The notes: generated by a model from the sequence alone, not told the origin. A stretch of DNA of 56,785 nucleotides, filler included, from Basidiobolus ranarum (GCA_040143965.1; 4 parts of 4 records of this genome joined end to end with filler, not necessarily neighbours in it); one strand, 5' to 3'; numbered from the whole stretch's first letter, positions 18,158 through 56,785 are shown. A program made the numbers and translations.

Positions 18158-20005
<1,848 letters not shown>

Positions 20006-28066: not shown

Positions 28067-28375
28067 GACTTTATTTCAAACAAAGACTTATTAAGTGTGA
28101 CAGCTCAACTCAACTGAATGAGTATGAAGTTCCAAAAATGAAACCATTTTATAGCCACCTCGCTCTTACGCTCAACGTCTGAAAAACCTGACTTGCTATA
28201 AAGATTCCATAAATTTACTTTGTGAACCATTTGTGGATGTTAAGGATTGACGAACGTTTTAGGGATTGTAGCACACCAGCTCCTAGAAATTAATTCAACT
28301 TATGTTACGGACCATACCATCGTACTACGCCCAAGAGCTCACAAAGAGATCATCTTCAAATTAAGACTAAGCTGT

Positions 28376-28475
28376 NNNNNNNNNNNNNNNNNNNNNNNNN
28401 NNNNNNNNNNNNNNNNNNNTTAATTAATTAANNNNNNNNNNNNNNNNNNNNNNNNNNNNNNNNNNNNNNNNNNNN
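28376..28475. other. Artificial contig-joining spacer
   Basis: Same N44-TTAATTAATTAA-N44 spacer. Confidence 0.97.
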
Positions 28476-28992: not shown

Positions 28993-31900
28993 CTATTTTT
29001 TGTTTAAGATATTTGATAGATTGAAACCGGATTTGATGGATTCCAATGATCCTGATGATTTCATTGAGCCTAATCTTCGAGGCGGATTTAGAGTAGATTT
29101 ACGACTGCTTCCAGGTAATGATGGGGGAAGTTTCGGTAGAATGCTTTGCTTTCGATTTCCGGCGTTGCTTAGTATAGAGAGGCGTTGATATCCGGGTCCA
29201 TTTAGTATAGAGCCCAGTCTTTTACCAGTGTTGGGTGCAATGGAGTATCTTGAGTGCTCAGTATTGCTGCTTTTGGGAGGTGATGAAACTATATCCGCAG
29301 ATGTATTTAGCTCAATTGATTGCCTGTTTTTCCCGAGGGCAATCTTTCTTTTTTTCTTCTGTACTGGATCAACTGACACATTATTTGAACTAGTAGAGTT
29401 TTCATTACCTACACCCAACGTTTGTCTCTTTCGATTGAAAGCTATCTTTTTCCTTTGGTTAGTTCCCTTGGGCGATATCTCATCAGAGATGCTATCTTCA
29501 GAGATCTGTGATATTGTGATATCTTCAATGATTGGCTTTTTCTTCCGCTCTAGCAACTTTTCCACTCTACCGGTTTTCTTGTTGGTTTCATAGTTGTTGG
29601 AGTCCATGCTATCTTCAAACTCCACTCTATCTACAGTGGTTGCATTGATAGATTTAATTTTCTTTCTACCACGGCTATTAGGTGAGGGGTTTTTCAATCC
29701 ACCAGCAGTACTATCGGGTATCTCTGAAGTCAAAATCTGCTGTACGATTTTCTTGGAATCATTTTTCGGGGATTGAGAAATTGATTTAGCGGGTGCAGTA
29801 GGTTTACTAACTTTCTTTCTACCGCGTTTTGAGGTTGACTCTGATGCTAGTTCTTCAGCTTGCGGAGTCAATTTCGAAGTGAGTTTCTTGTCAACCCTAC
29901 CTAATATGTTACTGGCTGTATTGGCGTCATGATCGTCATCTTTAATTGCATGTTTCTCTACGGACTCTGTACCAGAAGATTCCTCAGCAATGGTGTTCAA
30001 GTGAGGAATGACTGCAGATTTTTGGCGTTTGCGAATTGGCTTCGTCTTCGCTATTTTTACGACCTCAGAGTTAGTTTTTGAATGAGGAGTAAGAGAAAGC
30101 TCATCTTCATTGGAATTGATTGAATCACGGTCATTTATCCGTTTTCTGTTAGTGGGTGTAGATGACTCTCCCGGCTTATGTTTATTCTGATTGATTTTCT
30201 TCTCTAAAGATAAAATTTGACTTTTGAGTTGGTTACGCTCGTCGTTCCAATTAGATAATCGTTCTTCCAATTGAAATTGAGTATCTGCAGCTAAGTTGAC
30301 GGCATTCATGAATTTGTCTTGCATCTTTTTGAATTTCTCTTCCATTTTTGAATTGCCCTGTTGAGTGGAGTCACGAAGCACTTGCTTTGTATTGACCATG
30401 GATTCAGCATTATTAAATTTGAGTTCGAGCTCCTTAACCTGATGAATCAAATCTTTTTTCTCAGACGTCCAGCTCTTCAGTTCAAGTTGATGTTGCGCTA
30501 CGATGAACTCACTCTTAGCTTTAGCTGCACTTAACTCTCTCTATATTAAAAGAGAATAAACATGAATCTAAGGAAGTAAAAGACAATTTAAATCTAAACT
30601 ACATACATTCACCTCTTCAATGCGATCCGTCATTTGAATTTTCTGTTTTTCAAAAGAGTTTTGCCCATTTTTGGCTTCAGCACGGAGTTTTCTGATTGTT
30701 TGTTCAAGATCGGAGACCTTATAAATAAGTTCATCAGATGTTTGGCTACCACTAGTTCTTTCCAGCAACCATTTCTTACGTTCCTTTTCAATTTTGACCG
30801 TTCTTTTTTCGAGTTGTGTCTCCAGTGAGATATTTTCTTTTTCAAGAGTCTTGATTTTATGAGTTTGAGCCTCGAATTTTTTGCTCTCATCTTGTAGCTT
30901 CTCCTTAAGCTCGTGGTTCTCTGTCTGGAGTTGTCGAGCATTTTGAGTTTCCAAAGTTAGTTTTTCCAATATCTGATTATGAGCTTCTTTGAGCTCAGAA
31001 TACGTTGTCCGAAGGGTACAAAGAATTTCTTCAACGGATTTTAGCTCTAGTTTGGAGGTGATTACGGACTCTTGACATCTCTCATAATCAGTTGCTTGTT
31101 CATCAAACGAATTCTAAAATTAAGTGGTCGTGAGTACCATATCTACAATTAAATAAATCCATTCGAAATTCTAAACTCTACCTGTAAAACTGCGAGTTTG
31201 AGTTCGACATTAGTGCATTTCATCGCCAACATATCTCGTTGGTCAGTGACAAGTGCTACAGAGGAAGAATATAAATAACGCGGTCAATATGTATTTTCGA
31301 TTTATCTTACTTACACAGATTAACGCGGACTCTACGAATATCTTCTTTTAATGTGACAATTTCGGTGGTCATTGTAGATGACGATAATCTAGCATCCATT
31401 GTCGATATAATCTCACTGGCTTGTAACTAAGAGAAAGTCAAGCAAAATTAACTAATGCAGTCACCACTTTGAACAGAAAATCTCTTACTTCGTTGCATTG
31501 TTCCTTTAAGTTAACGCAGTTCTTCGTCAAATCATGAATTTTATTTTGAAGTGACTTGTTTGTATCTTGAAATTCCTGAAGCAGGGCTTCTTGCTGACGT
31601 AGAATCCCAAATTGAGTTTCATAATCGGCCTAGGGGAAACTTCGTGAATACTCTATAGAAAATAGAATAATTCTATAAAAATGTACTTGAATCTTTTTCA
31701 GTTCAGTCTTGTATTGTTTGCATCTTCTTTCATGTTGGATCACTCTCCGATCGATGCTATTCATTTTCTGAGTAGAAAGAACTGATTAAAAGATAAGCGA
31801 AGAAGTATTATAGACATTTCTTCATACCTCGCGTGTTTTCATTTTTCTAAGAATCTCTCCAAATTCTAGCAACTCGGCAGTTTCCCGATTGAGTTCCCTT

Positions 31901-35760: not shown

Positions 35761-36656
35761 ATATAATGTAAAGCAAAGCAGTATAACAAGACCAAAACAT
35801 ATACTTCTCCTACTTGAACTTTTTATTTGCAATACCAGTGATTTGATGAAGTTTGACTTAGCAGTTCAACAGTTAAGCTACTGATCAGATACACAATTGT
35901 TAGACCTTCGCTATATATATATATGGTGTTTAACTAGAACAATAGATCCTCTTTCCACTCTAGCATATCTCTACCCATACTATAGAGCCAACTGACTATT
36001 GTGGCGCATTAATAGCAGACAATTTCTAAGTAGTCCAAGTACACCAACTCATACTTCTAATATGGCAACTATTCAGCACTAATATGAAAATTGCCATTCG
36101 GTTTCAATTTGAGTGAAATAATATCGTAAACTTCATCCAAGTTTAATAATTCCTATCAAATAATCGGCCGCTCAGTTGAATTTTTGTAGGGTTAGGGTTT
36201 CTTAAAAAAGGGCCAATTGTGTCACTACAGGGGAAATCATTTGCTGACGAGTAAACCATTTTAGCGTATTCGTTCTCTGTAAAGAAACCTAACGAACGAA
36301 TTGCAACTTGAAGTGTGGGAAGATCCTGAAATTCCCCCACTCTGTAAATCTAAATGATGGGTGTGTGCAACAACCTGTCAAAATCCGATAAATTAGAAAA
36401 ATGCTCTATAAAGATAATCTCATTACAATATGAATTACCAGGTTTCTAGTTCAATTTAATACTTTTGTTACATATTAAGGATCTAGCCACCAACGTAAAT
36501 ATTGGAAATACATCGAATTATAATCGTTTCGTAATCAAATATAGCAAAAAGTTTTCCCACCCTTGGTGCATCAACTAGACCTGTAATCGTATTTTCTTAT
36601 CATTTATAACCCTAGCCTGCGCCTGTCAAAAGGTTGAACTTTTTCTCAGATAAAGT

Positions 36657-38088
36657 ATGTCCCGTTCTTTTGTACCTCTTCGTTCCCTCTCTAAATTATC
36701 ATTAACAAGCATGGCTACTCGTCGCTACAGTTCTAGAATTCATGAGGTAGTTGCCAATGAACTTCAGGCCACTAGAGATGCCGGTACATTCAAGAGCGAA
36801 CGCATTATCACTACCCCTCAGCGTAGTGCAATCCGAGTTCAGGATCCTAATGATAAAAATGTCACCACTCCTCAGATTAATATGTGTGCCAACAACTACC
36901 TTGGTCTTTCTGATCACCCAGCAGTCGTTGCTCGTGCCAAAGAATACTTGGACTCTCATGGTGCTGGTCTTTCTTCTGTTCGTTTTATTTGTGGTACCCA
37001 AGATATTCACAAAAAACTTGAGAAGCAGATCAGTGATTTTTATGGCACCGAGGATACCATTTTGTATGCTTCTTGCTTCGATGCAAATGCTGGTATCTTT
37101 GAAGTTCTATTGAACGATCAAGATGCCATTATTAGTGACGCTCTCAACCATGCCTCCATTATTGATGGTGTTCGTCTTTGCAAGGCTAAGAGATTCAGAT
37201 ATCAGAATTGCGATATTGAAGGTAATATGCATATATATATATATATAGTGTTGTGAACAATTTTCCAACTTTTATTTCTATGTTGCAGATTTAGAGAAGC
37301 AGCTTCAAGCCGCTGATAGCCAAGGTGCCAGAATCAAGATGATCGCAACTGGTAGGTGTTTTCATATTCCATTTCTAGGACATAGCAATTTTGATTAATG
37401 ACTTCTTGTATTTTCAGATGGTGTCTTTTCCATGGATGGTAAGATTGCTCCTTTAGATAAAATTTGTGACGTAGCTGAAAAATACAATGCCGTCATTTTC
37501 GTGGATGATTGCCACGCTACCGGATTTTTGGGTAAAACTGGCCGTGGTACCCCTGAACATTTCGGAGTTCAAGACCGAGTACATATCGTCAACTCCACTT
37601 TAGGAAAGGCTTTAGGTGGCGCTGCTGGTGGTTATACTACTACTACTGCGGATATCGTTTCTTTATTACGTAATCGTAGTCGTCCTTATCTGTTTTCCAA
37701 TTCTTTACCTTCACCTGTGGTTGGGGCTGCATCTGCCGCTATTCAGCTCGTTGATGAAGGCAAAGCCGGGTTAGATCGCCTCTGGGCTAATACTCATCTC
37801 TTCCGTAGCAAACTCAAGGCTGCTGGATTTACTGTCAAGGGTGATAACCATCCCATCACTCCAGTGATGTTAGGAGATGCACGTCTGGCTTCCGAATTCG
37901 CTGATGAGATGCTTCAAAAGGGAATTTATGTTGTTGGGTTTTCTTATCCTGTTGTTCCAAAGGGACAGGCACGTATCCGTGTTCAGTTGTCCGCTGCTCA
38001 CTCTACTGAGGAAGTAGAAAAGGCTGCTAACGCTTTCATTGAAATCGGACGTAGACGCGGTGTTATTCCTTCTGAAAGCAAGCTGTAA
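36657..38088 (+). CDS. GCAT: 2-amino-3-ketobutyrate CoA ligase (glycine C-acetyltransferase), mitochondrial, 3 exons
   Basis: Arg/Ser-rich presequence, [68 protein letters not shown] and [22 protein letters not shown]. Confidence 0.95.
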
Positions 38089-41541: not shown

Positions 41542-42602
41542 ATGGAGAATGAACCCTTTGGCCACATTTCTGCTGCTTACGATTCTAGAACCAGCCTATC
41601 TTCCGATTCTACTTTAAATAGCGATAATACTCCCTTCTTTGCTACACAAGGGTTGAATGATTCATTCGCATTCATGTTAAACTCGAATCAATATTCGGAT
41701 TTCGATGGAAATATACCACCCTTGCCTGTCACAGGTAAACTTTGCATTCTGCTATAAACACTTAGCCATCTGCGATGATTGGAATTTAAAATCTTACCTA
41801 AATTTTTAGAGCCCCTTCAGTTATTCCCAAGTTCTACGGATCTGGAAGAATGGTCCCTCCCATTGCTAGAATTCAACGAATTAAGCGGCAATGAGTTGAT
41901 TCTCGAATGTTTACCGGCGACTTCCAACGAGTACGAGACTGTAATGGATTTAGATACCTCTTCAGAATCAAATATGCCTTCACCGTTAAGCAGTAGTTTT
42001 GATTCTGATAAATCAACAGTGGATCCTCAGATATCCTTAAAATACAGCCGTGACGCCAGATATCCACTGTCAAGCATAAGATATATTCCCGATCAAAATC
42101 CAGTTCCTGATGGCTTGACGGAAGCGAATCAAGCGGCTACATTCAGAGGTAAACATCGACCATCCAATTTGGTTATTTCCTCAAGTGTTGAACATTTACT
42201 GCCATACTCTATGGCACCTGGAATCACTAGATCCACCACATCTCCAGAAGAAGTCAAATTTGGTTTCAATATCACACCACCTTTAACCCCATCTACGATT
42301 TCAAACACTTCCTCTTTTTTTCGTTTGACCAAAGCAAATCGACGTTTTCGTTGTCGATTAGGGACTATGAGTGCCAAAAATCTGTGTCATGGCATGAAAC
42401 CTAAAAAACTACAAGGAAAGAAAAGAAAAGAAAGCGTGGAGATAAAGGATGAAGAGGCAGAGAATAATACTTGCCAGTTTTGCCAACGTCCATTTAAGCG
42501 TAAACATGATTTACAACGTCATGTGAGATTGCATACTGGAGAGAAGCCGTTTCAATGTAGTCAGTGCCTTCTTGCTTTCTCACGAACGGATACACTACGA
42601 AG
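41542..42602 (+). CDS. C2H2 zinc-finger transcription factor (3' truncated by contig end), intron ~41735-41809
   Basis: Acidic Ser-rich N-terminus followed by CQFC...RKHDLQRHVRLH-TGEKPF-QCSQC...RTDTLR. Confidence 0.9.
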
Positions 42603-42702
42603 NNNNNNNNNNNNNNNNNNNNNNNNNNNNNNNNNNNNNNNNNNNNTTAATTAATTAANNNNNNNNNNNNNNNNNNNNNNNNNNNNNNNNNNNNNNNNNN
42701 NN
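42603..42702. other. Artificial contig-joining spacer
   Basis: Same N44-TTAATTAATTAA-N44 spacer. Confidence 0.97.
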
Positions 42703-43405
42703 GTAGAGAACGTAATGATGAAGCTACACCCAGAAATTGTGAGCACTTTTATACTTCAAGCACTTACCTCGGGTGGCTCATCTGGAAGCATGGCACGTCC
42801 TATATTAAGGGAAGCGGCATGATTGGGATTGAAGTTGATTCTAGAATATCGCTTATTTGTAAGTGTGGTAGGTACTCAGTATGTAGAGAAAGGTATCGAA
42901 ATTCGAAATCCCCATTTTCTGGCTTCCGTTCTGTTGGAGGTTACGTGTCTCGTTCGTACATTTTATATTAGGACTACTGTAATAAATAACTTGTTGGAGA
43001 CAAATGAACTAGTATTTGAATTTGGAATACAAATGCAAGTACTGTGTTTTCATAGGTAACTGCTGATCCTGAAAATTCTGTATTTAGATTAGTCTTCACA
43101 CCTTTTCGAACCTAATATAAATTAATGTCGCCTTGATACATCAGCAACATCAGGAATTATAAGTAAGTCTTGATGAGTATATCCACAACCTGTTATAAGA
43201 ATATACCGCCACTATCGCTGAGAGTGAGATAACTAATGGACATGGCTACACATGCAACAAATCTTAGTAATTTTAGTTATCTGACTTTGTGGTTGTTGCA
43301 GATAGTTTTGTTTATTTATGAAGGTTATTGAGCATATGTTCTAGTAAGCTAGCAATAAATCTAAAATGTGTAGTAACTATTCATTAAATAGAGTGAAGGA
43401 ATTAG

Positions 43406-43834
43406 CTAGATAATGCACATAACGTTAGGACTGGATGGCAACACTCTGACCTTGTGTATCCCATAAACTAATGGGCATCCAACTGGACGTTTTTCATTTT
43501 TCTTATTGTCGATGAGCGTCAAAGTGTCATTGCCTATGAAACGGCTAGTGATCGGGAACAAAATTTCAATATTTCCTTGCTGACTTTGTACATCTACAGT
43601 GTGTACTTGATGCACTACAACCCCGCGGCGAGAGCCAGCTCGGTAGAGCTCCACGTTCAGACCACTTACAGTATTAAGTACAGGAGAGGGGATACGGAAT
43701 TGTAACTTCATTGTACATCCAGCATGAATCACACCAGGGCCATTGATATCCACATTAGTGGTGCAGATACTGGGAGACGGTGCTGCAAAACCCAGACTAA
43801 GCATTGAGAGAGCAATCAAAGTAGAAGAAATCAT
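43406..43834 (-). CDS. Small secreted protein (142 aa, 4 Cys, beta-rich)
   Basis: Likely start MISSTLIALSMLSLGFAAPSP (signal peptide); TATAAAA on the minus strand at ~43916-43922. Confidence 0.75.
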   Translation of the reverse strand: MISSTLIALSMLSLGFAAPSPSICTTNVDINGPGVIHAGCTMKLQFRIPSPVLNTVSGLNVELYRAGSRRGVVVHQVHTVDVQSQQGNIEILFPITSRFIGNDTLTLIDNKKNEKRPVGCPLVYGIHKVRVLPSSPNVMCII

Positions 43835-44556
43835 TTTAATAGCGATTTGAAAAGAACCAGTAGTGCCAAGATATAAAAAACCTTGAATATCACTACTGTA
43901 TACTGCTAGAGACACTTTTATACTAGATTTGCTTACGAGCCAGGAGACATCTCAGACTCAATCGAATGCATGCTACACTCTGACTCTGTAAAAACAGGCT
44001 TGGCTGGAGCTATGATGCATCACGAATAAGCCATTAGATGATTATTACCGGTTGTGGTCTATATTGAAGAAATATCAGAACCCCCTAGCCCCACTACTTG
44101 TACTTCTTTGTATCTGACATTGCTTACGGAGAAGAGATAACTCTGAAAGTTCATTAGTTATACTGCAAATATTGACTTGGACTTTCTTAATTCAATCAAC
44201 GCTTCGGGTATTAGTTGTAAGCTGGAATTTTTCAGACGGATATTTACCACGCCAAACACTATACTCACTTCAAGCAGACTTCGTTGAGATTGTGACTCCA
44301 TTATCAATATTTAGTATTCATACTAATGCTCTAGGCACGCAAATCCCCATCTAAATGGTTTATGATCAGCAGGTTATTCTATTTGTGTGAATTACTTTGT
44401 ACACATTTCCCGTAATCAGCCTGTTAGAAGTTAGCAATTTTCCTTCCAAGATTTACTTAGCACCATCTCCGTTTGGTAATTAAGTTCAGAAGTACGGGTA
44501 GTGGGGTATGGGGGTTCCGATGTTTCTTCAATATTTTCATCACAATTTGATATACC

Positions 44557-44628
44557 ATAGTATTGCTTCGCCAGTTCACCCTAAATAAAGATGATAGTAT
44601 TGCTTCGCCAGTTCACCCTAAATAAAGA
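44557..44628. repeat. Tandem duplication of 35 bp (period 37)
   Basis: ATAGTATTGCTTCGCCAGTTCACCCTAAATAAAGA occurs twice, separated by TG. Confidence 0.9.
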
Positions 44629-45153
44629 AGATCTTTTGCATAAGTAGTAAAATTAACTTAGAATTGATTGCCATTGACCCTGAAGGGCCCAGGGCTGATA
44701 TGCGAAATCGATAAAAATAATCATTGGAGGTGACTATATACTCCAAGCCAGAATCCTCAATTGCCTCTTATATTAACTGGGACTAAATGACGTACATTGA
44801 CCTCCTTGGCAGCTATGGTGATTTGAGGCTGATTTTGTAGCCCATCTCCAGTGAGGGCACTCATAGTAGTGGAGACAGGGAGTGGCTAATACTATTTAGT
44901 ATCTAACCCTACATAAAAGCTTTTTGCCTATATCTTTATATCAGTACACTCGGATATATATAAAGTTTAGCGTGCATATCAAGGGTTGTTACGGTAATCT
45001 TGGTGGTAATCTTGGTGGTAATCTTGCTGCCAATTCAATCTGCAGCTCACTAATGCAGATACTTTATGAGAGCAGAATATTAATAAATGCATTGAAATTT
45101 GACTAGTTTAATTCAAAGCTTAGAAAATCATGCATGACCCTAATACACAATAA

Positions 45154-48100
45154 CTATAGCATGTTCATCGATTTAGCAACTGACTCAAGGTCTATAACTG
45201 TATTGAAAGGGTTAGTGAGGATGTAGTTGGCACATATTTTATACAGATTCAAGTGTTTCTGTGCTATCTCGTGTGGGAGTATTAGGTGGTTATAAGAGAG
45301 TGAAACTTGTAGTCCGTCGTCAACAGGGAATCCTTCGATCATGACAGTTGGGTGAATAGACCAGTAAGTTTTGATTTCACTCACTCTTGCTGAGAACCCT
45401 ACTTCTGGCAACTTACGGCGATAATTTTGATAGGCAACAAATGAGCCAAATACTTTCTGCATATCTGTCCTATCAGCAAAGACACTGTTTTTAAGAACCT
45501 GAGCCAGATCAACATTCTCAAAAGGTAATAGATTGTGTTGCTCCGCTTGGAAACGGCGTAATAGGTCGATCAATCGTTCTTCTTTTTTCATTTCTATCCG
45601 GAATGGCAACACATTGAAACACATTCCCACCATCTCTGCAATGCCTTCCAGAGGCATATTGCGGCCAATTATCACATCTCCAAAGAAGATGTCATTTTCC
45701 TGGGCATACAATCCCATAGTAATGACCCAGACTGCCTTGAAGAAAACCGCTTTCATTAAATCCTCCGTCTTACAGAATCCAGTAATATCGCAAGTTAGGG
45801 TCAGTTTGATCCCCGAGGAGTACTCCGAGGTTACGTACTCTGTAGGCAACTGCCTGGGGATCAAGTCTCCACTAACACCATCTAGCTTGTTCTTCCAATA
45901 CTCAACCTCGGGTACCATATCTTGCTTAAACCAGCTGTCTACAAAGTTTAGGTAAAGGGGGCGAATGGGAGCGCTTCCATGTTCATAAATTTGAATCAAG
46001 TCGCTGAGCAAAAGTTCCATCGTCCATCCATCCATCAACGAGTGATGGATTGTCCAAACAAATCTATATTCTTCAGTTTGGTCGCAGAAAAGAGCAAAGC
46101 GTATCATGTTTCCGCCAAGACGCATACCTTTCTCACGGTTTTCGACTATGTATTTTTCAACGGCTTTCTCTTTTTCTTCCACGGAGGTGCAATTTACAAT
46201 GTGAAACTCTGGCTGGAAATGCTGCTCTTTTATCACTATTTGAAGAAAATTCAAATGGTCCAATTTGGCGTTAGAAAGCACAAACACCGTACGTAATACT
46301 GGATTTTGGTGGCATAATTGCACACAACTCTTTTGGAAGCGCTCAGTATCAAGTGGCGCTGTAATACTGTAGAGTGTCTGGAATATCTGCGCACTTTTAT
46401 CCAATATAGTCTCATAAACCGTATACCCTTGAAGCGGTATACATGGTATTATGTTCTCAACGAAATCCTTTTGAATTCCATTACCAGCGACATCCACTTC
46501 CCAGATTTTTTCCATGGAGGATTCGTCGACATGGAGTAGATTGAATGGTTGCAAGTGCGCCGTACTGTGGTTATCTTTTGACCCTAGACTACTGTTAGTA
46601 GAAAGATATTCTGCTAACATTGCTACAGTGGGGTTATCGAAGATCTGTGATGAACTGATCGGATACCCAGCTTTGTGGCATAAGGAACATATCTCGATAA
46701 CAGAAAGTGAGTCTCCTCCTAGAGACAAAAACGTATCATGAATTCCAATATGCTGCACCGCCAAAACCTTCTGCATGATTTCTGCCAGATTCTCCTCTAG
46801 CGAGGTTCGTGGGGCTATATAGTTTTCATGCAAGCTTGTGTGTGTTACTGGGGGTGCTGGGAGAGCTTTATAGTCGATCTTTCCATTTTCGGTTAATGGT
46901 AGTGACTCCAACACGACGAAATCAGCAGGAGTCATAAAGTCAGGCAACTTTTTTCTCAAAAAATTCTTGAGCTCAGGTATGAATTGTTGTAGCTTTCTGT
47001 GGAGTGGATTGTTGTAATTCTCAGAATCCAAGTTCGTGTACTCCGGCATCTCAAAGAGATGATAGTTTTCGTTGTTATTAGAGCGCCAAAACACAACATC
47101 ATATACTCCTCCACCATCGTGATGACTCCAGGAAATATTCATGCTGAAGCCTTTCTCTTTGGATATAAGATAAAGTTGATCTGGTGAAGCTCCGTCAAAA
47201 TCATTGTCATCAAGTGTTTTCTGTAGTTCAACAGCGGTACAATCATCCAGGCCTCCATCTAATGTTTGCTGCAAATGTATCTCTCTTTCAAGACGCTTGT
47301 TGGGGATACCTTTGATTGCGAGTATATCTTCCTGCCGATTCTGTAATACGTCACGAACACAATCCAGACTTGGACAGTCCACTTTCCAGTCTAACCATCT
47401 TGGGACTTCTATTTTGCCGCTATCCACACAGCCGATGTGCAGTACTACTTGATAACGAAACTTGCTCATCTCGTTCAAATTACTGGTTAGTTTAGGAATC
47501 ACTTGCACGTGACTTATCTCTTTCATCTTTTCTTTCAATGTAAAAAAGTAGGCTGGATCCAACAAAAGCTCATTCTCGTTTGATTCCTTGGTTTTCGCAA
47601 TTTTTCGGAGCTCTTGCACGGTGGTATTTTTATTTGCCTTGAATAGAGCTAGCGAACTGTAATGGTACTTCGACAGAGTCTTCCCGCGAATGTCCCCCAA
47701 AAAGATATGGCCCCCAGGTTTAACAGATTTTATCACACTATTCAGCAAGTTATTTAAATATTGGATACCTGGGAAGTGCTGCAATACTGAGTTGATGATC
47801 ACTGTGTCAAATTGATCGACTTCAAGTGAATCAAGCTCGTGCGCGCCGCCCGATTGCAGCTGAACAATATTCTCCAAGTGTAAATCTTTCAGATATCCCC
47901 GGACATAATCCAGTGCAGCTTCTGATAAATCCGTGCCAACATATACTTCACATTGAGGGGCTATATTAAACATGATCATACCTGATCCGCATCCTATCTC
48001 TAGAACATGCTTAGGGCGAAGACTCTTGATTCCATTAAGAGTGTCCTCTAGCCACTCGCGCATCTCCTGCTGTGGGATTGTAGTACCATCGTAGGTATTA

Positions 48101-50253
48101 GTCCATCCTGCGGTATTGAAAGTTGGCTCGTAGTGACCACGTTGAATATCATCATATGCATACTCGTCACATGCTAGTTTATAGTCGTTTACATACTGCG
48201 GTTCTAAATCGTTAGCATCCATTCGGGTAATATACCCCACCAGTCGCTTATGCTTCATGCCATCTTCAAGTGGAACTATAACGCATTCTTTAACTAATGC
48301 ATGCTGCATCACTACATCACGTACTTCACCCAACTCCACCCGATTACCTCGAATCTTAACCATATCATCAATTCTACCAATATATTCAAGATTCCCATCG
48401 GCCCTCCAGCGTGCTAGATCTCCAGTGCGAAATATCCTTTCTCCAAGGACTGGGTTAACAAATTTTGCAGCAGTTAAGTCAGGCCGGTTCAGATAACCGC
48501 GAGCTAAGCCATTTCCGGCTAAGAAAAGTTCACCCACGGCACCAATGGGTACCGGCTGAAGGTTTTCATTCAGGACATAGGCACGATTATTTGAAATTGG
48601 TCGCCCGACGGGTATTTTAGGCAGGGTTTCTTTAATCTCGTACCATGTTGAGCAGACTGTGACTTCCGTAAGGCCATACAGATGTAACAGACGCCCTGTG
48701 AAGCCAAAATCTAGATATTTCTGAACCAGTTTTATATTTGCAGGCTCACCACCGAACATTACACATTCCAGTGGAGTGAATAAAGTAGGTCTATGAATCA
48801 TAATCTGGTTGAATAACGCAGTTGGCATCACCATACTATTGATACCATGTCGCCTGACCTCACTTTCCAGAGATACCAAGTTCAAGGATGTTGCTCGGTT
48901 GATGCATACAAGGGTACCTCCATTTAGTAGAGCTGACCAGATCTCAAGTGTGGACACATCAAATGATGTATTACAAATTTGCGCAATTCTGGTTTTGGCA
49001 GTCGCCTGAAAATAATCAGTGTTGCATACTAATTGAATAACTGATTTATGCTCGATCATAACTCCTTTTGGTGTTCCGGTTGATCCGGAAGTATACATCA
49101 CGTAAGCAAGATCTTCTGCGGCGACTGATGTATCGAGTCTAACATTGTTTTCGTCATTTTGTATTTTTCCCCATTCTTCATGGATGGCGATCACCTTTGC
49201 AGTTGTTAAGGAGAAAAGATCACTGGACGGTCTATCGATTAGAACTACCTGACACTTAGAGTCTCGAATCATAAAGTCCAACCGTTCAGCTGGATAGCTT
49301 GGATCTAATGGTAAATATGCTCCCCCAGCTTTCAAAACTGCCAGAAAACAGGTGACTAGCCATTGTGATCGTTCCATACAGACTGCCACCAATGTGCCGC
49401 TATTGACTCCTACATCGCGCAAACGATGTGCTAATGCATTGGAGTATCTTTCAAGATCAAGATACGTCATTTTTACATTACCATTGATGAGTGCTACACC
49501 GTGGGGGTTATTGGTTACGTGCCCCTCAAATAAATTTATCATACTCACGCCAGTGGGAAGGTCCGTTTTCGTATCGTTCCAGGTTACTAACAATTTTTCG
49601 AGCTCCTTTTCGTCAAGTATCAAAATATTCTTGATGAGTACTTCGGGAGATTGTGCTATGCTCTCTAATATGTTCAGAAAATGACTGATCATTTGTTGAC
49701 CGATTTCATCTTCAAATAAATCCGTTTGGCATTGTAATAGGCCATTCAATGCAGTAGTGGATTCCTGAAAATGGAGCTCAATAAGTGGATGTTCCCTGTC
49801 TTCACCACTGGAGTGGGCACTCTCAGCTGTCTGATGAAAACTGAAAAGTACTGTGAAAAACGTTTCGCTATTTTTGGCTGATTTATATCCAGACGTACGC
49901 TGAAGCTTGGTTTTCTCAACATTGTGTAGCAGCTCTCGAAAGCTCATATCTGACCAAATATCATGGACGATACAGTGATTATTGATACCTGAAAAACTAT
50001 CTTCGACACAATGAACAATTACCTTGTGCTTGATATAGGAACCAAGAAGTATTTGGAAGGCTGAGAGCAGAATTGTACTCAAGGCTACTTTTTCTTTCTG
50101 GCTCAAATCATGAAGCTTCACTCTCAGGTCACTGGAGACGGTGAATGACTTAGAGGTTATAGTTGATGATTTCTTGCAGAAATCAGCTATTTTGTTTGTG
50201 ACATCGTAAACGTTGGTAGAGAAGCGTTCAGTGTTTGTGGTACTTTTAAGCAT
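45154..50253 (-). CDS. Monomodular NRPS: partial C - A (interrupted by N-methyltransferase) - T - terminal C; intronless
   Basis: A cores YTSGSTGTPKG, FDVS, YGLTE, GELFLAGNGLARGYL, RTGDLAR, VKIRGNRVELGE; embedded MT VLEIGCGSG and INSVLQHFP; then LTENGKIDYKAL, T domain LGGDSL and C domain HHSLMDG. Start taken as MLKSTT (50253), just after TATATATA at ~50288-50296; the ORF extends to 50340. Confidence 0.93.
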   Translation of the reverse strand: MLKSTTNTERFSTNVYDVTNKIADFCKKSSTITSKSFTVSSDLRVKLHDLSQKEKVALSTILLSAFQILLGSYIKHKVIVHCVEDSFSGINNHCIVHDIWSDMSFRELLHNVEKTKLQRTSGYKSAKNSETFFTVLFSFHQTAESAHSSGEDREHPLIELHFQESTTALNGLLQCQTDLFEDEIGQQMISHFLNILESIAQSPEVLIKNILILDEKELEKLLVTWNDTKTDLPTGVSMINLFEGHVTNNPHGVALINGNVKMTYLDLERYSNALAHRLRDVGVNSGTLVAVCMERSQWLVTCFLAVLKAGGAYLPLDPSYPAERLDFMIRDSKCQVVLIDRPSSDLFSLTTAKVIAIHEEWGKIQNDENNVRLDTSVAAEDLAYVMYTSGSTGTPKGVMIEHKSVIQLVCNTDYFQATAKTRIAQICNTSFDVSTLEIWSALLNGGTLVCINRATSLNLVSLESEVRRHGINSMVMPTALFNQIMIHRPTLFTPLECVMFGGEPANIKLVQKYLDFGFTGRLLHLYGLTEVTVCSTWYEIKETLPKIPVGRPISNNRAYVLNENLQPVPIGAVGELFLAGNGLARGYLNRPDLTAAKFVNPVLGERIFRTGDLARWRADGNLEYIGRIDDMVKIRGNRVELGEVRDVVMQHALVKECVIVPLEDGMKHKRLVGYITRMDANDLEPQYVNDYKLACDEYAYDDIQRGHYEPTFNTAGWTNTYDGTTIPQQEMREWLEDTLNGIKSLRPKHVLEIGCGSGMIMFNIAPQCEVYVGTDLSEAALDYVRGYLKDLHLENIVQLQSGGAHELDSLEVDQFDTVIINSVLQHFPGIQYLNNLLNSVIKSVKPGGHIFLGDIRGKTLSKYHYSSLALFKANKNTTVQELRKIAKTKESNENELLLDPAYFFTLKEKMKEISHVQVIPKLTSNLNEMSKFRYQVVLHIGCVDSGKIEVPRWLDWKVDCPSLDCVRDVLQNRQEDILAIKGIPNKRLEREIHLQQTLDGGLDDCTAVELQKTLDDNDFDGASPDQLYLISKEKGFSMNISWSHHDGGGVYDVVFWRSNNNENYHLFEMPEYTNLDSENYNNPLHRKLQQFIPELKNFLRKKLPDFMTPADFVVLESLPLTENGKIDYKALPAPPVTHTSLHENYIAPRTSLEENLAEIMQKVLAVQHIGIHDTFLSLGGDSLSVIEICSLCHKAGYPISSSQIFDNPTVAMLAEYLSTNSSLGSKDNHSTAHLQPFNLLHVDESSMEKIWEVDVAGNGIQKDFVENIIPCIPLQGYTVYETILDKSAQIFQTLYSITAPLDTERFQKSCVQLCHQNPVLRTVFVLSNAKLDHLNFLQIVIKEQHFQPEFHIVNCTSVEEKEKAVEKYIVENREKGMRLGGNMIRFALFCDQTEEYRFVWTIHHSLMDGWTMELLLSDLIQIYEHGSAPIRPLYLNFVDSWFKQDMVPEVEYWKNKLDGVSGDLIPRQLPTEYVTSEYSSGIKLTLTCDITGFCKTEDLMKAVFFKAVWVITMGLYAQENDIFFGDVIIGRNMPLEGIAEMVGMCFNVLPFRIEMKKEERLIDLLRRFQAEQHNLLPFENVDLAQVLKNSVFADRTDMQKVFGSFVAYQNYRRKLPEVGFSARVSEIKTYWSIHPTVMIEGFPVDDGLQVSLSYNHLILPHEIAQKHLNLYKICANYILTNPFNTVIDLESVAKSMNML

Positions 50254-50557
50254 GATGTTATGAGCAGATATGTCAGATTTAGGAGCTATATATATAGCTA
50301 GGATATCCAGTAATCCCAGCAAAGACGGATAAACAATCATTTAAAATATAATACGTATCATTCATTAACTTCACTCGACCTGTGGTAGGTAATAGGAGAC
50401 TAGTTTCAGGGATGGTTCAGGAATGCTCATCAAAGCGTTTCCAAACGAAATTATTAGGTAAATCGAGAAATTAGGTAAATCAAGAGATTACCTTGCTAGT
50501 ACAATGGCAGCATCGATAGAAAATTGGTAAAACAGGATTTCTGAATTCTGATGCTGT

Positions 50558-50607
50558 TATAATATCTGTACTCTGATTATTCTATAATATCTGTACTCTG
50601 ATTATTC
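50558..50607. repeat. 25-bp perfect tandem duplication in the NRPS/P450 divergent promoter
   Basis: TATAATATCTGTACTCTGATTATTC x2. Confidence 0.9.
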
Positions 50608-50848
50608 TGGTTGGTGGTAATGAATTGCAATTATGCCATGCAAATCTTAAATTAAACTATTGTTCAAACTCCACCTACGTATCTCTGTAGCAAAAGGGTC
50701 AATATCCAATTGAGTATAGGTTGTTTCAGCTCCCCTAATTGTAAGGCGACTATTCAAGGAGACATTATTAGTGCACACTACCCCAAGTAGATACCGTATC
50801 TGTTCCATTAAAAGGCAAAGGAGGACTCAAGGCTAATGATTCTTTCGT

Positions 50849-52996
50849 ATGTGGCTTTTCTCTATTACTTTGATTATTATAAGCGCCCTTGCGGTGAAGT
50901 ACTTCAAGTCCGTGCAACCTATCCCTCAAGAGTTACGAAAATTGCCTTCAACTCATGATTTTGCTGGCATATTTCGACTCTTAACCGGTATGGAATTACT
51001 GACAGTTCTAGAGAGATACTATTGCCCTGCTCTTCAGCATGATGGCATAGCAACGGTAATTAGCATATATTTGCAGCTGTTCAATTGAAAGTTATCCTTT
51101 CTGAACTGATTTATGCAGTCCTATATTAGAGGGAAACTTGGAGTGATGGTGAACATTTATTTTACATACTGAAATGATTTCACCCAGCTGAAGTTTGATT
51201 TAGGTTTCCAATCCAGAATATGTAAAGCACATTTGGAAGAATATAGGTATTTGAAATAATATCCATTATGCTGCATACTACTTATCAACGCCAGTACAGA
51301 CGTCATTCCTAAGTTCCCCATTGTTGATGACCCGCACTCACTTATGTTCAAGCTTCTCGGCCGTAACGTGGTTTTTTCGTAACTATCTTTAATATACGTC
51401 TCTCTGTGACTTTTCTAACCAGATTTATAGCAATGGAAAGGTTAGGTCTCTTGATACAAACTAAATATTCCATTTGCTTACGCTGATTTTCAAAGCGTTG
51501 GAAGTTGAGAAGGGAACTTATCAACCCGCTCTTTCGTATGAGTTGGGACCCAGCCAAGTTTGGTCAAATAGTGGTTGATTTCTTTGGCTACATCGAGCGA
51601 AATCCTATGCCAGATCTATACCAAGCCTTTGAATTGTATTGACTTCTAATAATACATCCTATGAATTATTACTAATCTACACCGAACTAGATTGACTCTA
51701 GATAGTCTTGGAAAGATTTTATTCGGCTTCGACTTTCAGGTATTTGACGCGACCCAACTTTGACATTACTCTCTCTGATATTAGTGAATTCTAGGCAATT
51801 CAGAATCCGTCCGGTGAACGAGTAACTACGTACTTTACGGCATTTACTGCTGCCACAGACTCTGTGTATATATTTGCTCCAATTTTGGATTATTGGCCAC
51901 TCGGGCAACGAGCGAAAGGACACCGTGCGGTCGAGCGCTTTCGAACAGTCCTAGGTCAGGTAGCTAAGGACAAAGCCAGGGAAATCAAAGATGATTCCAA
52001 AAATCTGCCTAGAGAACCAAGTGACTTATTGACAGTATTCGTTCAAGCATGGATTGAGAATCAGCTAAGTCTTGAGGAAATATTGGTATGGTAATTTTGA
52101 AAGAATCATCCTAAAATTCCGGACTGAAGTACTGTTTGTAGGATGAAATGACCGCTTTGCTAATCGCTGGCCATGGTAATTATTCTCTAAATTTTACAAG
52201 TGGACAGCAGCTTGAGTAACATCTTTATAGACACAACGGCAAATGCACTCTCATGTGTGGTATATTTGCTAGCTAAACATCCGGAGATTCAGGTGCGTGT
52301 GAGGGAAGAAGTAAAAAGCGCGTTTAGTAACCACACAACAGGCCAGCAAATTCCATCAGCTGATGAAATTAAATGTATGGTAGCATATCAATCAGTCTCA
52401 AGTTATAGTTTATTTAATGGATTTTAGCTTTAAAATATCTCGATGCTGTGATTAAGGAAGCTCTAAGACTCTATCCATCGACGCCTATACTTCCAACACG
52501 TAGAACAGCTAAAGATACTCAACTAGGAAATATTCCAATCCCTGCTGGGACTCTTATAACGGTAAATTTGCATGCTATGCATCGATATGATAAATATTGG
52601 GCCGATCCCCATATATTCAATCCAGAAAGATGGCTATCCTTGGACGATCAGGCGCGCAATAAGATTGCTTGGAGCGCTTTTACTGGTGGGGAACGAATAT
52701 GTAAGAAAAAACGATATATATTAGTTAGTTTCGTGCTGACAACTATATCTTTACTATCAGGTGTTGGAAAAGGATTTGCTACGACTGAATTAAGAGTAGT
52801 GCTCTCAATGCTAAGTATAGATAAGCGATCTATAATTATTCGACGCTACATTCTAACATATGCCACAATTATAGTTCGCAAGTATAGCCTGCATCTACCT
52901 GAGGATAGTGTTCATAAAGAACGGATTCAGTTTTGTTGCAGCATCCTTCTAAAGCCTCGCAACCTTCGGGTTCAATTTAGGCCATATTCAGAATGA
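50849..52996 (+). CDS. Cytochrome P450, intron-rich
   Basis: N-terminal membrane anchor, VVFS|NGK|RWKLRRELINPLF, I-helix LIAGH|DTTANAL, EALR, PERW and heme motif FTGGERI|CVGKGFA. Splices into an intact frame. Confidence 0.92.
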
Positions 52997-53484
52997 ACCT
53001 GAGATGCTACATCTGATGATTATGACCAAAGTCAGCAGTATTACTACATCCTGTAGTATGCAGATTTATATTTATGGATGTTCAATAAAACCAATAATCC
53101 ATAATGCTTCTTTGGGACATAGTTAAATATCCTGTAGAAAGATTTTTTCGGTGTAATTGGCAAAGCAATAGCTCAACCTCTGATAGCTTATGTACTGGGT
53201 GACATCCAAAGTTGCTTCTAAAGGTCGTATATGGTATCATTTAGAGATATTTCGTTTGCAATATACCATCCCAAAATAGTCAAACTTTGAGCTCAAACTC
53301 CTAGGACCTTATTAAACCTTATATATCACTTCCACAAGCCACATCGTTACATACTACCTCTTTATTCAAAATAAAAATAGGGGAAAAATATCAACAGTGT
53401 CATCTGGTTAAGCCCAGTTTAAAAAGAACATTAATTGTATAAATGCGGAAAGTTTCATTTAGTAAATAATATGATTCGATTGAA

Positions 53485-55296
53485 TTACTGATTCTCTTCG
53501 TCTAATACACTACTCATTCCACTTAAAATATAGGGCACACCCAACGCAAGGCCCGCTATATTATGTAAGCATTGTAATCTTTCCTTACCAGATAACTCCT
53601 GAATCTTCCAGCCTATCCTGCCGAAAAGCTGGTCACTGAGTCCATCCAAGTCTTGCCACTCTTTTATAGTTGAATTATCCTGCATGCAAAGCTGCATCGG
53701 TTTGAGAAACCAAGCGTCATATAATTCATCCATCAGTGGTAGCTGTAAGTCAGTTTCTGGCCACCATCTTTTAGGTACTTTCCCATTAATTACTTCTTCG
53801 ATCCACTCCCACATAAGTGAGGACCATGGTTCCCAGTCTAACTCCATACTTTGATTTGTTCCGGAAAAGTAATTATAAAAAGATGAACCAAGATACGGAT
53901 CAAAGCAACTAGCTTTCACTTTCTCGATCCACCTGCATCTTGTATGTTTGTCTAGTTGACTGCAGGTAATGCCGATATTTTCAAATAGATGCCGACTTCG
54001 AGTCTGGCACATGGTGTATAGACCGATTGATAGCCCAATACTGCCCACTGACTCCCCTTGTTGCTGCAATTTATGGAAAGTGCTAATACTATTGAACGAT
54101 ACGGCAATCAACTCGGCTACAACAGTGGAGGGTGACATTTGATTCATTGAACTTCCGCATAACCGAGCAATATTGGTCATTTCCCCATTTTGAGTGTCAC
54201 GGAGTAGGTCGAAAATATCATGTGGGACTACACTCAGCGCATAAGCTTCTTGTGACACTAAATCAGTCGAAACTGGCCCACTTTCACTACTGTATGCCCA
54301 ACCCACGCCGTCAATACCACGTAAGAACAAGACGTCTCCTAGTGGCACATTGTGCTTGATAAACATTGCATCTGGACACTGTACATCACACGATTTGCGA
54401 TGAATTTGGACCATGTCCATATAAGCGCTTACTCCTAACCACTTCGTCAAGTGCTGAACCGAGTTTGTGCCCTCACAGAATTCTCTCAAGATTCCGTGAA
54501 CAACTTCTTTGTAAATGGTCTGACCTACATCTTCTTGCGCTCCATGCCAGATCCCGTGGTCTTGTGTACTTATTAGCGACAAAAGCATGTCATTACAAGA
54601 AATATCATTAGCTTCCCAAAAGGATCTACAAGCTGCGTGGTATATAGCAGTGCCAATTGCTCGATTATGCTTGAATGAAGCTGAAGGACACAGCCATTGA
54701 GCCCACCCATCTAGATGATCCCAGTCCTCGATCCTCCAATTTTTTTTATATTCAGAATAAACCGCTTGATGGCCAGAATTTTGCATGACTGACAGCGATA
54801 ATCTGTTGAAAATTCTTAATGCCGCTAGCATGATGTTGAAATATGCGTCCAGCCCGTCTTGGCAGCGTGCAAACGAGCGAGAGATATCCTGAGTGTGCTC
54901 ACGCAGTCTCACCAGAACCATGGCAGTGATCTCGTCGTCTTCGGACGGACATTCCACTCCGTATTCGCACAATATATGTAAGATTCGCGAGTCAATTACA
55001 TCTGTATGATTAGCCAAGCAGCCGGTTTTTTCTGATATAGATTGAGCCATACATAGAGCCGCAGAAGTAAAGCAAGGGCCGTCGTATTTCTTTTTCCCAA
55101 TTGTTACGGAGTTTGTGACTTCATCGATATCTATTTTGACAGCTTTAGTATTCATACTGATGTACGAACCGTTTGATTTCTGGAGTTTGAATGAACATAA
55201 GGTAGCTGGCCAACTGTATTGCTGTACCGGCTTACGCTCTAGACAGTCATTATCGGCTTGGACGGGTGTGCTGATTTCTCTCAATGTTTGTAACAT
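53485..55296 (-). CDS. Hypothetical protein (603 aa, intronless), possibly a non-canonical class I terpene synthase fold
   Basis: Long clean ORF with an upstream TATA-like sequence (~55360-55368). Motifs LFLRGIDGVG, HDIFDLLRDTQNGEMTN and YTMCQTRSR appear in the order of the RxxDG, NSE-type and RY motifs. The gene is well supported; the function is tentative. Confidence 0.7.
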   Translation of the reverse strand: MLQTLREISTPVQADNDCLERKPVQQYSWPATLCSFKLQKSNGSYISMNTKAVKIDIDEVTNSVTIGKKKYDGPCFTSAALCMAQSISEKTGCLANHTDVIDSRILHILCEYGVECPSEDDEITAMVLVRLREHTQDISRSFARCQDGLDAYFNIMLAALRIFNRLSLSVMQNSGHQAVYSEYKKNWRIEDWDHLDGWAQWLCPSASFKHNRAIGTAIYHAACRSFWEANDISCNDMLLSLISTQDHGIWHGAQEDVGQTIYKEVVHGILREFCEGTNSVQHLTKWLGVSAYMDMVQIHRKSCDVQCPDAMFIKHNVPLGDVLFLRGIDGVGWAYSSESGPVSTDLVSQEAYALSVVPHDIFDLLRDTQNGEMTNIARLCGSSMNQMSPSTVVAELIAVSFNSISTFHKLQQQGESVGSIGLSIGLYTMCQTRSRHLFENIGITCSQLDKHTRCRWIEKVKASCFDPYLGSSFYNYFSGTNQSMELDWEPWSSLMWEWIEEVINGKVPKRWWPETDLQLPLMDELYDAWFLKPMQLCMQDNSTIKEWQDLDGLSDQLFGRIGWKIQELSGKERLQCLHNIAGLALGVPYILSGMSSVLDEENQ

Positions 55297-56432
55297 TTTG
55301 GCTACAGTGATACGTGCACCAAGAAATAGAAACTAAGCATTTAGTAGTGATGAGTGCACTTTATATAATCCAGAAACAAGACGTAGTGCAGCCCCTATAT
55401 ATCAGCCCCATAACCATGACCAGAAATTAGGGTTATATTGAGAGGTCAATTCCAACTTTTCGGTACGCTAATCGTGAACTTATGCGATGTCAAGATTCAT
55501 CAATTAAGCAAGACAATTACTGTGAAACCCGGGGCTGCAAAGATAGGCGTATATATTTAGGTAATCCACTCCTATTGGATGCTCCTGTTCATTTTCTTAT
55601 CGTGCATATGCGTTGCTGTACGATTTCTGCCTCATCGATTTTGGTATATAATCTGAGAATGAGGATACATGGAGCTTAGCCCTAACCCTAACTCTTAATA
55701 TACGGATCATAATCATGTGGAGAAATAGTAGGGGTAAGTATTTAAATCGGTATCGTCGATGTCGCAGCAGGAGTAACTTGCATCCGAAACTACACCATAG
55801 TCTTCATTATTTCGATTCACAAGTCTGTCTCATTATATGAAATAAATATCTTGCTTTCATTAGCTTATTGCCTCACTTACCAACCCTAACCCTTTACTGG
55901 ATGCTTGCAGATAGTACATAGAACTTCTTCCCCTCTATAGTGCCAATCAATTTCTGATTACTCTATTGTATTGAGCAATAGTTTGATAACCCCTGGACCG
56001 ATGAAACAAGCAACTAGTCAATTACGTATGGGTGGCAGGGGGCTGATAATTACACTAGTTTCTAGTGGATTTTCAAACTTAGTACCACTGCTGTAATATG
56101 TCTTTGACCAACGCGGTGTCAATGAAAAAAGCGATGCAAAGTTTTGCAGCTTGCAGAATAAAGAATCTAATATTTTTGGTGGCACATTTTAAATCATAGA
56201 ATGAGAAATATGCTCTATAATTGGCGAATGGTTGTTTCCCTCTGGCTAATCATATCAGTCGGCCGCTAAGAAATTACCATTACGCTGTGATTTATGGAGA
56301 AACTGGCTTTGGCACTTACACTAATAGCAGGAATCTCTCTCCTGAAGAACATGAACACATTGCTAGAAAGATACCTACTTATCCAAGAACCTAAACTTGA
56401 TGGTATACAAGTCATCTGTTCACATTCTTACA

Positions 56433-56785
56433 GGGGATGAAAAGCACAAGAAGGTGCAATCTTTATTTATTTGAAGTTAGATAACACATATATATAATAA
56501 AGCCAAGACAGAAATAAAATTTGTAGGATAACATTAACACAGATCTTTTTAAGCAAGCATCCCAAATTTCTCAGCTTGAAAAATGTAGAAGTCTTTCAAA
56601 AATTCTGTAACGAGTGGAGTATGATAATTTTTGAAGTGTAGTATATCTTTAAAGCAGAGTGTCCTTTATAGAAAAGGGTTAGGGGGATGAAAAGCACCAG
56701 ATGGTGTGGACTTTATTTAGCTTAAATACTAATCTAACCAAAGTGACAATCAAGACATCAATCTTTTAAGATATTGTGACAATAC
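56433..56785. repeat. Repeat family B, two GGGGATGAAAAGCAC-headed units 250 bp apart
   Basis: Heads at 56433 and 56683; CpG-poor; the second unit matches 14758-14857 in reverse. Confidence 0.65.

Follow-up and report, generated by a model that had tools for sequence, protein, structure and literature searches.

A putative terpene–N-methyl-amino acid hybrid locus containing a VigB-like orphan protein, a single-module NRPS and a cytochrome P450

The last contig of the 56,785-nucleotide stretch of DNA analysed here (the window) carries an intronless gene for a 603-amino-acid (aa) protein (53485–55296, minus strand) whose predicted model has a non-canonical class I terpene-synthase fold. It is best described as a VigB-like protein, of a histidine variant, in a superfamily that shares this fold and is for the most part uncharacterised. 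Beside it lie a cytochrome P450 gene and a gene for a monomodular nonribosomal peptide synthetase (NRPS) with an embedded methyltransferase. We tentatively propose, as a possibility rather than a probability, that the three genes form a compact secondary-metabolite locus making a terpene–N-methyl-amino acid hybrid. As a putative cluster, the locus fits a known type of terpene–amino acid hybrid cluster, with new features. Two kinds of non-canonical cyclase, VigB and the Trichoderma diterpene cyclases (TriDTCs), were recognised only in 2025, and both are invisible to Pfam-based genome mining. The locus points to a third, very sparse cyclase branch with an altered metal-binding motif, found in a bacterium and in fungi of a non-Dikarya type. 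Here this branch adjoins an N-methylating single-module NRPS and a P450.

The 603-aa protein: fold, motifs and relatives

Judging from predicted models, the 603-aa protein probably has a terpene-synthase fold. A single-sequence AlphaFold2 prediction was useless (predicted local distance difference test score, pLDDT, 34.6). The results below draw on three alignments: A1, with 10 rows; A2, the clade of the 603-aa protein alone; and A3, a family alignment of 39 rows. AlphaFold2 with A3 gave a model with a pLDDT of 68.4 and a predicted template modelling score (pTM) of 0.76, in which residues 1–54 and 89–144 are poor. When this model was compared with 48,161 Protein Data Bank (PDB) chains using VIA-align, the best 50 rows all had the class I terpenoid synthase fold (Z 10.6–7.4, 202–256 residues aligned, root-mean-square deviation (rmsd) 4.1–7.0). 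Of these 50, 41 are identified by their titles as terpene or isoprenoid synthases or cyclases, and one is the prenyltransferase DabA (Z 8.0). The other eight (SkABA3, BcABA3, Cop4, Hyp, CotB2, FlvF, AaTPS and ‘Hedycaryol’) we take to be terpene synthases. The superposed range starts at residue 194 or 195 and ends at about 430–490 in most rows; overall, residues ∼195–440 (53977–54714, minus strand) form the region superposable on class I terpene synthases. VIA-align Z scores below ∼13 can be reached by a common arrangement in helical proteins. Because the scores lie in this grey zone, it is the uniformity of the list, and not Z itself, that argues for the fold.

Two independent but weak leads agree with the fold, one from a feature search and one from a sequence profile. 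A feature search of the ESM Atlas returned TRI5/terpene synthase clusters at 0.90–0.89, behind unnamed Ascomycete clusters at 0.95–0.94, and the Atlas's own model of the protein had no structural match (TM ≤ 0.27). The best PDB sequence match of the A3 profile was guaia-6,10(14)-diene synthase (E 0.098), where the family stretch lpNDvmDLhtDiltGEtrNllRL aligns to the NSE-motif stretch LVNDILSYEKDLRLGVDHNMVRLL. The 603-aa protein has no significant match to the canonical families PF03936, PF19086 or PF06330. The sequence-only reading of this DNA had called the orphan terpene-cyclase-like, a description that the fold matches and the motif parallel with VigB now support.

VigB provides the closest template for the motifs. 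As published (PMC12703729), VigB from Virgaria nigra is a 589-aa ‘hypothetical protein’ that acts as the non-canonical class I diterpene cyclase of vinigrol. It cyclises geranylgeranyl diphosphate (GGPP) in a Mg2+-dependent reaction that requires its N- and C-terminal extensions, and catalysis relies on D260YGT, R339/G340, N369DIQDYERD and an RY pair (Y436) (PMC12703729). The 603-aa protein contains D-x-G, R-G, xDxxDxxxD and R-x motifs in like order and at near-equal spacing, the comparison being with the published description of VigB. D246-H-G-I (54550–54561, minus strand) is the positional counterpart of VigB D260YGT and the equivalent of the aspartate-rich motif; it places a single aspartate, D246, where DDxxD is expected. 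R326-G327 (54316–54321, minus strand) corresponds to R339-G340, the pyrophosphate sensor and helix kink. H359DIFDLLRD367 (54196–54222, minus strand) corresponds to N369DIQDYERD and stands in place of the NSE/DTE metal-binding motif. Finally, R435-H436 (53989–53994, minus strand) is a candidate counterpart of the RY pair, a match suggested by spacing only. The gaps between successive motifs are 80, 33 and 77 residues in the 603-aa protein and 79, 30 and 67 residues in VigB.

R326 and R435 never vary in A1 and hardly ever in A3, while D360, D363, D367, G371, E372, N375 and R378 are the same in every one of 39 sequences. The metal motif begins with histidine in all five collected sequences of the 603-aa clade and with asparagine in 101 others; the pattern is lacking in two of the 108 collected proteins. 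VigB's own NDIQDYERD was not found in any of the 108. Where the 603-aa protein reads DHGI, its relatives from Streptacidiphilus and Basidiobolus ranarum read DYG[IV] (DYGI and DYGV).

Close relatives of the 603-aa protein are very rare. An exhaustive phmmer search of 1.84 billion representative proteins returned six at E ≤ 0.001, including the query itself, and the other five are without any Pfam domain. A hypothetical protein of Streptacidiphilus sp. BW17 (2.1e-28) and KAK9763727.1 of B. ranarum (2.0e-27) are strong matches and the only close relatives among these representatives. Three weaker matches (3.5e-6 to 7.2e-5) come from an Ascomycete family. KAK9763727.1 shares 38% identity with the Streptacidiphilus protein but only 23% with the 603-aa protein. 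From these sequences, the pattern of identities would fit inter-kingdom transfer of a rare family. When the 603-aa protein was used as query in a word-indexed search, it was itself the sole match (one of 4966 candidates). The same search with A1 likewise found only the query (one of 6012), even though the collection holds the other nine rows, so a blank from this method is weak evidence. Scans of prokaryote genome contigs gave 88 pattern matches with A2 and 23 with protein P0008, and a scan of metagenome contigs gave 90; the relatives' loci were confirmed in none of these. The Streptacidiphilus relative had no tblastn match among plasmids.

The Ascomycete family is much larger. A search with its Pochonia chlamydosporia member, VFPPC_15462, returned 99 proteins that are 47–81% identical to the query, none of them functionally named. 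Family members are ∼585 aa long and span Metarhizium, Claviceps, Talaromyces, Xylaria, Orbilia and others; Trichoderma is absent from those listed. They carry a near-invariant NDVMDLHTD..GETRN motif, lack any Pfam domain and are highly conserved across classes. Their identity to the 603-aa protein is 15–22%, and profile comparison with hhalign joins the family to the 603-aa clade with a probability of 98.6% (E 7e-16, 470 columns). By these profile alignments the two groups show themselves to be homologous. Because of that homology, the Ascomycete family probably also has a terpene-synthase fold. A quick tree of 39 family members contains three very long branches and thus does not place the 603-aa protein, whose own branch is very long (9.08 changes per column). 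In the literature library searched, we found no paper citing the six locus tags looked for (five from the Ascomycete family, one for the B. ranarum relative).

The neighbouring NRPS and P450 genes

A single intronless open reading frame (ORF) on the minus strand (45154–50340) encodes the monomodular NRPS, which is 1728 aa long, or 1699 aa if counted from M30. Its domains, in order, are a condensation (C) remnant, an adenylation (A) domain with an inserted methyltransferase, a thiolation (T) domain and a terminal C domain. The sequence-only reading had the A(MT)-T-C order right and left the N-terminal remnant unmentioned. That remnant or C-A linker occupies residues 187–251 (49588–49782) and matches positions 392–456 of the 456-position Condensation profile. 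Residues 1–270 match only the tail of this profile, the last 65 positions best, and no HHxxxDG motif was found in the N-terminal part of the protein, the sole copy being at residue 1432. The gene therefore starts with a C-domain remnant, which from its sequence would be either a truncated upstream C domain or a C-A linker. The adenylation core (AMP-binding, residues 271–617, 48490–49530; Pfam 3e-80) is followed by the core of an S-adenosylmethionine (SAM)-dependent methyltransferase (residues ∼772–901, 47638–48027; Pfam Methyltransf_12 and related families) and by AMP-binding_C (residues 1122–1154; Pfam). The thiolation domain (PP-binding, residues 1185–1246, 46603–46788; Pfam 1.8e-11) has GGDSL at residue 1208, and the terminal Condensation domain (residues 1295–1718, 45187–46458; Pfam) has HHSLMDG at residue 1432. 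All of these domains are on the minus strand.

The core motifs of the NRPS are all intact. The A domain contains A3 SGSTGTPKG (residue 418), A4 FDVS (460), A5 YGLTE (555), A7 FRTGD (637), A8 GRIDDMVKIRG (655) and A10 NGKID (1152), and the SAM motif VLEIGCGSG lies at residue 779. The methyltransferase is thus inserted between A8 and A10. Residues 259–1162 give a single continuous alignment to the interrupted A-methyltransferase chain 5wmm_A (2.3e-130). Read by hand against GrsA landmarks, the pocket code of the A domain is ∼D-V-L-V-M-G-L-V-C-K, and its substrate is presumably hydrophobic.

By sequence, the NRPS looks bacterial in type. Its nearest solved relatives are nearly all bacterial (LgrA at 1.1e-227, SrfA-C, TycB and McyB), and both Atlas clusters for which taxa are recorded are bacterial, which serves as a lead only. 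The terminal C domain taken alone is nearest to TycB (1.4e-33), then to bacitracin synthase 3, SrfA-C and McyB, and matches the fungal TqaA C_T domain at 2.2e-16. Inspection by eye revealed no A-domain remnant after the NRPS stop codon. A 47-nt inverted repeat lies 3′ of the NRPS gene (44061–44107 and 44488–44534; arms 85% complementary, with 380 nt between them), and after it a 37-nt unit is duplicated in tandem (44557–44630). Together these may be the remnant of a small mobile element.

The P450 gene (50849–52996, plus strand) is predicted to encode 491 aa in 13 exons. We built this splice model by hand from the DNA and its three reading frames. The exons are 50849–51055, 51119–51148, 51204–51246, 51300–51378, 51431–51440, 51496–51635, 51691–51739, 51795–52085, 52142–52175, 52231–52374, 52428–52700, 52761–52814 and 52875–52996; the 12 introns are all GT-AG and 52–63 nt long. 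A 10-nt micro-exon (51431–51440, coding S-NGK) is needed between introns of 52 and 55 nt. The predicted protein is full length, with a hydrophobic N-terminal anchor (MWLFSITLIIISALAVKYF), the AGHDTT, EALR and PERW motifs and the heme-binding FTGGERICVGKGF (FxxGxRxCxG). Pfam p450 matches two of the five exon pieces scanned (4.4e-8 and 1e-27) and an ORF piece (2.2e-25); the three other exon pieces, which are short and come from the N-terminal and middle parts, have no Pfam match. The solved P450s nearest to the exon that runs from the K-helix to the heme site are mostly of the eukaryotic microsomal type.

The NRPS and P450 genes diverge from a common intergenic region of 508 bp (50341–50848, GC 0.358) if the NRPS ORF is taken to start at its first ATG, or of 595 bp if it starts at M30, as in the Atlas record. 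The 603-aa ORF stands tail to tail with the P450 gene, 488 bp away. The sequence-only reading had described an intact P450 about 600 bp from the NRPS; the 491-aa model bears every signature motif, and the distance agrees with the M30 start.

The contig and its surroundings

The window consists of four contigs of ∼14.1 kb joined by three artificial spacers, each N44-TTAATTAATTAA-N44 (14144–14243, 28376–28475 and 42603–42702). The genes of the locus are physically linked only with the last contig (42703–56785; 14,083 bp), which holds four genes: the NRPS, the P450, the 603-aa ORF and a small ORF. Since all four lie wholly inside 42703–56785, their earlier placement on one contig was correct, and ORF and domain calls put each of them at the position first given. 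The small ORF (43406–43834, minus strand) encodes 142 aa, counted from its ATG, and its N-terminus (MISSTLIALSMLSLGFAAP) resembles a signal peptide. It has no Pfam match at E ≤ 0.01 and a single, chance-level match at E ≤ 10. Beyond the 603-aa gene, no further coding sequence was seen by eye.

The GC content of the window is about 0.30–0.45, and this together with gene structure shows a eukaryote. The best explanation for the last contig is an origin in an intron-rich eukaryote of fungal type; the only hints of an early-diverging fungus are the short introns that crowd the P450 gene and the B. ranarum relative of the 603-aa protein. GC content at third codon positions is 0.418 in the NRPS gene and 0.429 in the 603-aa gene, and spans 0.317–0.479 in the other genes of the window. 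Should the NRPS and 603-aa genes be bacterial in origin, they would be long-standing residents of the host. We considered contamination and chimeric assembly and rejected both: composition is uniform, and either is unlikely because the intron-rich P450 gene sits between the intronless NRPS and 603-aa genes.

The other contigs (1–42602) contain ordinary eukaryotic genes, which are split by introns apart from an intronless GMC oxidoreductase gene (26279–28075, minus strand). These genes encode a protein with PH and RhoGAP domains (4581–6545), a C2H2 zinc finger protein (8443–9195), a carboxylesterase (18705–20005), a decarboxylase dependent on pyridoxal phosphate (24553–25852) and an aminotransferase of class I/II (36654–38088). 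Two long ORFs, of 652 aa (2085–4043) and 515 aa (28993–30540), have no Pfam match, and a C2H2 zinc-finger ORF (41779–42654) is cut by the end of its own contig. Because the contigs are separate, genes on different pieces are not neighbours, and this includes the last-named ORF.

A putative pathway, its alternatives and known systems

We conjecture that the A domain would activate an amino acid, putatively a hydrophobic one, which the embedded methyltransferase, placed as in N-methylating modules, would methylate on the carrier. The VigB-like enzyme would ionise GGPP or farnesyl diphosphate (FPP) through D246, R326 and a metal site formed by H359, D363 and D367, and would then cyclise it. The P450, which appears to be membrane-anchored and of eukaryote type and would share the 508-bp divergent promoter region with the NRPS, would hydroxylate the resulting terpene, as VigC, the P450 of vinigrol biosynthesis, does with the VigB product (PMC12703729). 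The intact terminal C domain could pass its aminoacyl group to a free nucleophile; following the logic of AneB, ThmA and FlvI, it would esterify the terpene hydroxyl with the N-methyl-aminoacyl thioester. That the 603-aa protein is enzymatically active, on which substrate, what kind of methylation takes place and any link among the three enzymes are all inferred. We are close to evenly divided, leaning slightly towards no, on whether the 603-aa protein is an active prenyl-diphosphate-ionising enzyme, and it is somewhat doubtful that all three enzymes serve one pathway.

If active, the locus would carry terpene–amino acid hybrid chemistry beyond Aspergillus-type fungi and be a concrete example of a cyclase family transferred between kingdoms. 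Its natural histidine variant could also be used to probe metal and diphosphate binding in class I cyclases. The ∼585-aa Ascomycete family is, moreover, an untouched pool of candidate cyclases. A more far-reaching version of the proposal holds that the 603-aa gene represents a new, very rare VigB-like lineage of actinobacteria (Streptacidiphilus) and non-Dikarya fungi (B. ranarum and the genome analysed here), marked by histidine for asparagine in the metal motif, and that it has been joined with a bacterial-derived NRPS and a native P450 to give the first terpene–N-methyl-amino-acid pathway outside Dikarya; taken as a whole, we think this unlikely. Our search of a literature library found no paper that combines early-diverging fungi, a terpene cyclase, an NRPS, a P450 and a gene cluster.

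Several results weigh against a hybrid pathway. On the side of the fold, Z scores of 10–11 are within reach of helical proteins by shared arrangement alone, a Foldseek search of the PDB with the model of the 603-aa protein gave no match at E ≤ 0.001 (best 0.13), and the A2 profile had no match among PDB sequences at E ≤ 10. The 603-aa protein has no Pfam match even at E ≤ 10 and no NCBIfam model, and none of the four relatives tested has a match in either collection. On the side of the motifs, canonical DDxxD and NSE/DTE motifs were not found in the protein. Relative to VigB, it has histidine for asparagine in the metal motif and histidine for tyrosine in both DYG and RY, and most replacements made at such residues in VigB are reported to have eliminated activity (PMC12703729). 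In the column of position 276 it has E-G, whereas DD is present in nearly all relatives. The predicted P450 gene structure was built by hand and contains the 10-nt exon. The terminal C domain of the NRPS is nearer to bacterial elongation C domains than to the fungal C_T type. Considering also the half C domain at its N-terminus, the NRPS may have been cut out of a longer bacterial assembly line. Finally, no prenyl diphosphate synthase was found on the 14-kb contig.

The genes may instead belong to two independent units, with the VigB-like protein and the P450 making a terpenoid and the NRPS making an unrelated N-methylated product. Such a product could be an N-methyl diketopiperazine or an amide of a small amine, made alone or with an NRPS encoded elsewhere. 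Vinigrol is a precedent for the terpenoid pair: besides the cyclase VigB, its cluster requires no enzymes other than a GGPP synthase and a P450 (PMC12703729). A separate peptide product would also suit the terminal C domain, which resembles the peptide-bond-forming C domains of TycB, SrfA-C and McyB over TqaA C_T. We take the thaxtomin synthetases TxtA and TxtB to have the same A-methyltransferase-T-C layout. Set against this, the divergent region between the NRPS and P450 genes is a layout typical of co-regulated cluster genes, and a single module would need to iterate or have a partner to produce a dipeptide, while no partner NRPS was found on the 14-kb contig. On balance we consider two separate units rather doubtful.

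The remaining alternatives concern whether each protein does what its neighbourhood suggests. The 603-aa protein could have a terpene-synthase fold and yet be no cyclase, acting as a prenyltransferase on an amino acid or on the NRPS product, or being a non-catalytic or differently catalytic descendant. DabA, which N-prenylates glutamate, is among the fold matches, and both the uniform histidine of the clade and the very long branch of the 603-aa protein would suit such a descendant, as would the reported inactivity of TriDTC homologues outside Trichoderma (PMC12370890). But the other motif residues are invariant, and their layout agrees with that of a proven cyclase. Synthases and cyclases make up 49 of the best 50 fold matches, counting the eight that we take to be terpene synthases, and we hold a non-cyclase to be quite improbable. 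It is decidedly unlikely, though less so, that the neighbourhood has no biosynthetic meaning, in which case an NRPS fragment of an anciently transferred bacterial assembly line and a transferred or fast-evolving orphan would flank a native P450, with at least one of them inactive. This would account for the truncated N-terminal C domain, the bacterial affinities of the NRPS and its C domain, the contrast between two intronless ORFs and the 12 introns of the P450 between them, and the Streptacidiphilus and B. ranarum proteins as the orphan's nearest relatives. Transfer of secondary-metabolite genes from bacteria into Basidiobolus is documented and is marked by a lack of introns and not by composition (PMC7466969). 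Yet neither long ORF is interrupted (5.2 kb and 1.8 kb, ∼42% GC), the catalytic motifs of the NRPS and the family-invariant residues of the orphan are all kept, and the host-like codon composition points to long residence under selection.

The proposed hybrid pathway can be set beside several known systems. Both VigB and the 603-aa protein are annotated as hypothetical, have similar lengths (∼590–600 aa) and count guaia-6,10(14)-diene synthase as a weak sequence relative, a slight similarity that was the sole sequence clue to VigB (PMC12703729). The central region of each superposes on class I terpene synthases: a ColabFold model of VigB on CLM1 (8H4P) with an rmsd of 4.5 (PMC12703729), and our model on 8h4p_B with a Z of 8.6 and an rmsd of 5.1. 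The vinigrol cluster includes a P450 gene, and here one directly adjoins the 603-aa gene, but the contig lacks a GGPP synthase gene and the other neighbour is an NRPS. The TriDTCs are hypothetical and mostly intronless proteins without known motifs, with a predicted alpha-helical barrel and an essential DxxDxxxD triad at residues 445–452 (PMC12370890). D360-x-x-D363-x-x-x-D367 of the 603-aa protein fits this pattern, which on its own is weak evidence. The same source reports TriDTCs only from Trichoderma, Metarhizium and Ophiocordyceps (PMC12370890), whereas the Ascomycete family related to the 603-aa protein is far more widespread and lists no Trichoderma. That family shares the invariant D..D...D, GE, N and R with the 603-aa clade and differs in having asparagine in NDVMDLHTD and in lacking DYG.

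The NRPS likewise resembles known enzymes in part. Its embedded methyltransferase is placed as in 5wmm_A, but it is a single-module protein encoded on a eukaryotic contig. AneB, ThmA and FlvI, NRPSs with a single A-T-C module each, esterify the hydroxylated terpenes of aculene, CJ-12662 and flavunoidine biosynthesis, with the C domain selecting the terpene alcohol (PMC10720950). The aculene and flavunoidine systems, which the sequence-only reading had named as comparators, are apt. Like these enzymes, the NRPS described here has one module that ends in a C domain with its catalytic histidine and aspartate intact (HHSLMDG), and it lies near a terpene-cyclase-type gene and a P450 gene. It differs from them in its methyltransferase-interrupted A domain and its N-terminal C remnant, and in being bacterial in type, with a terminal C domain that matches TycB and SrfA-C (1e-33 to 1e-28) more closely than TqaA C_T.

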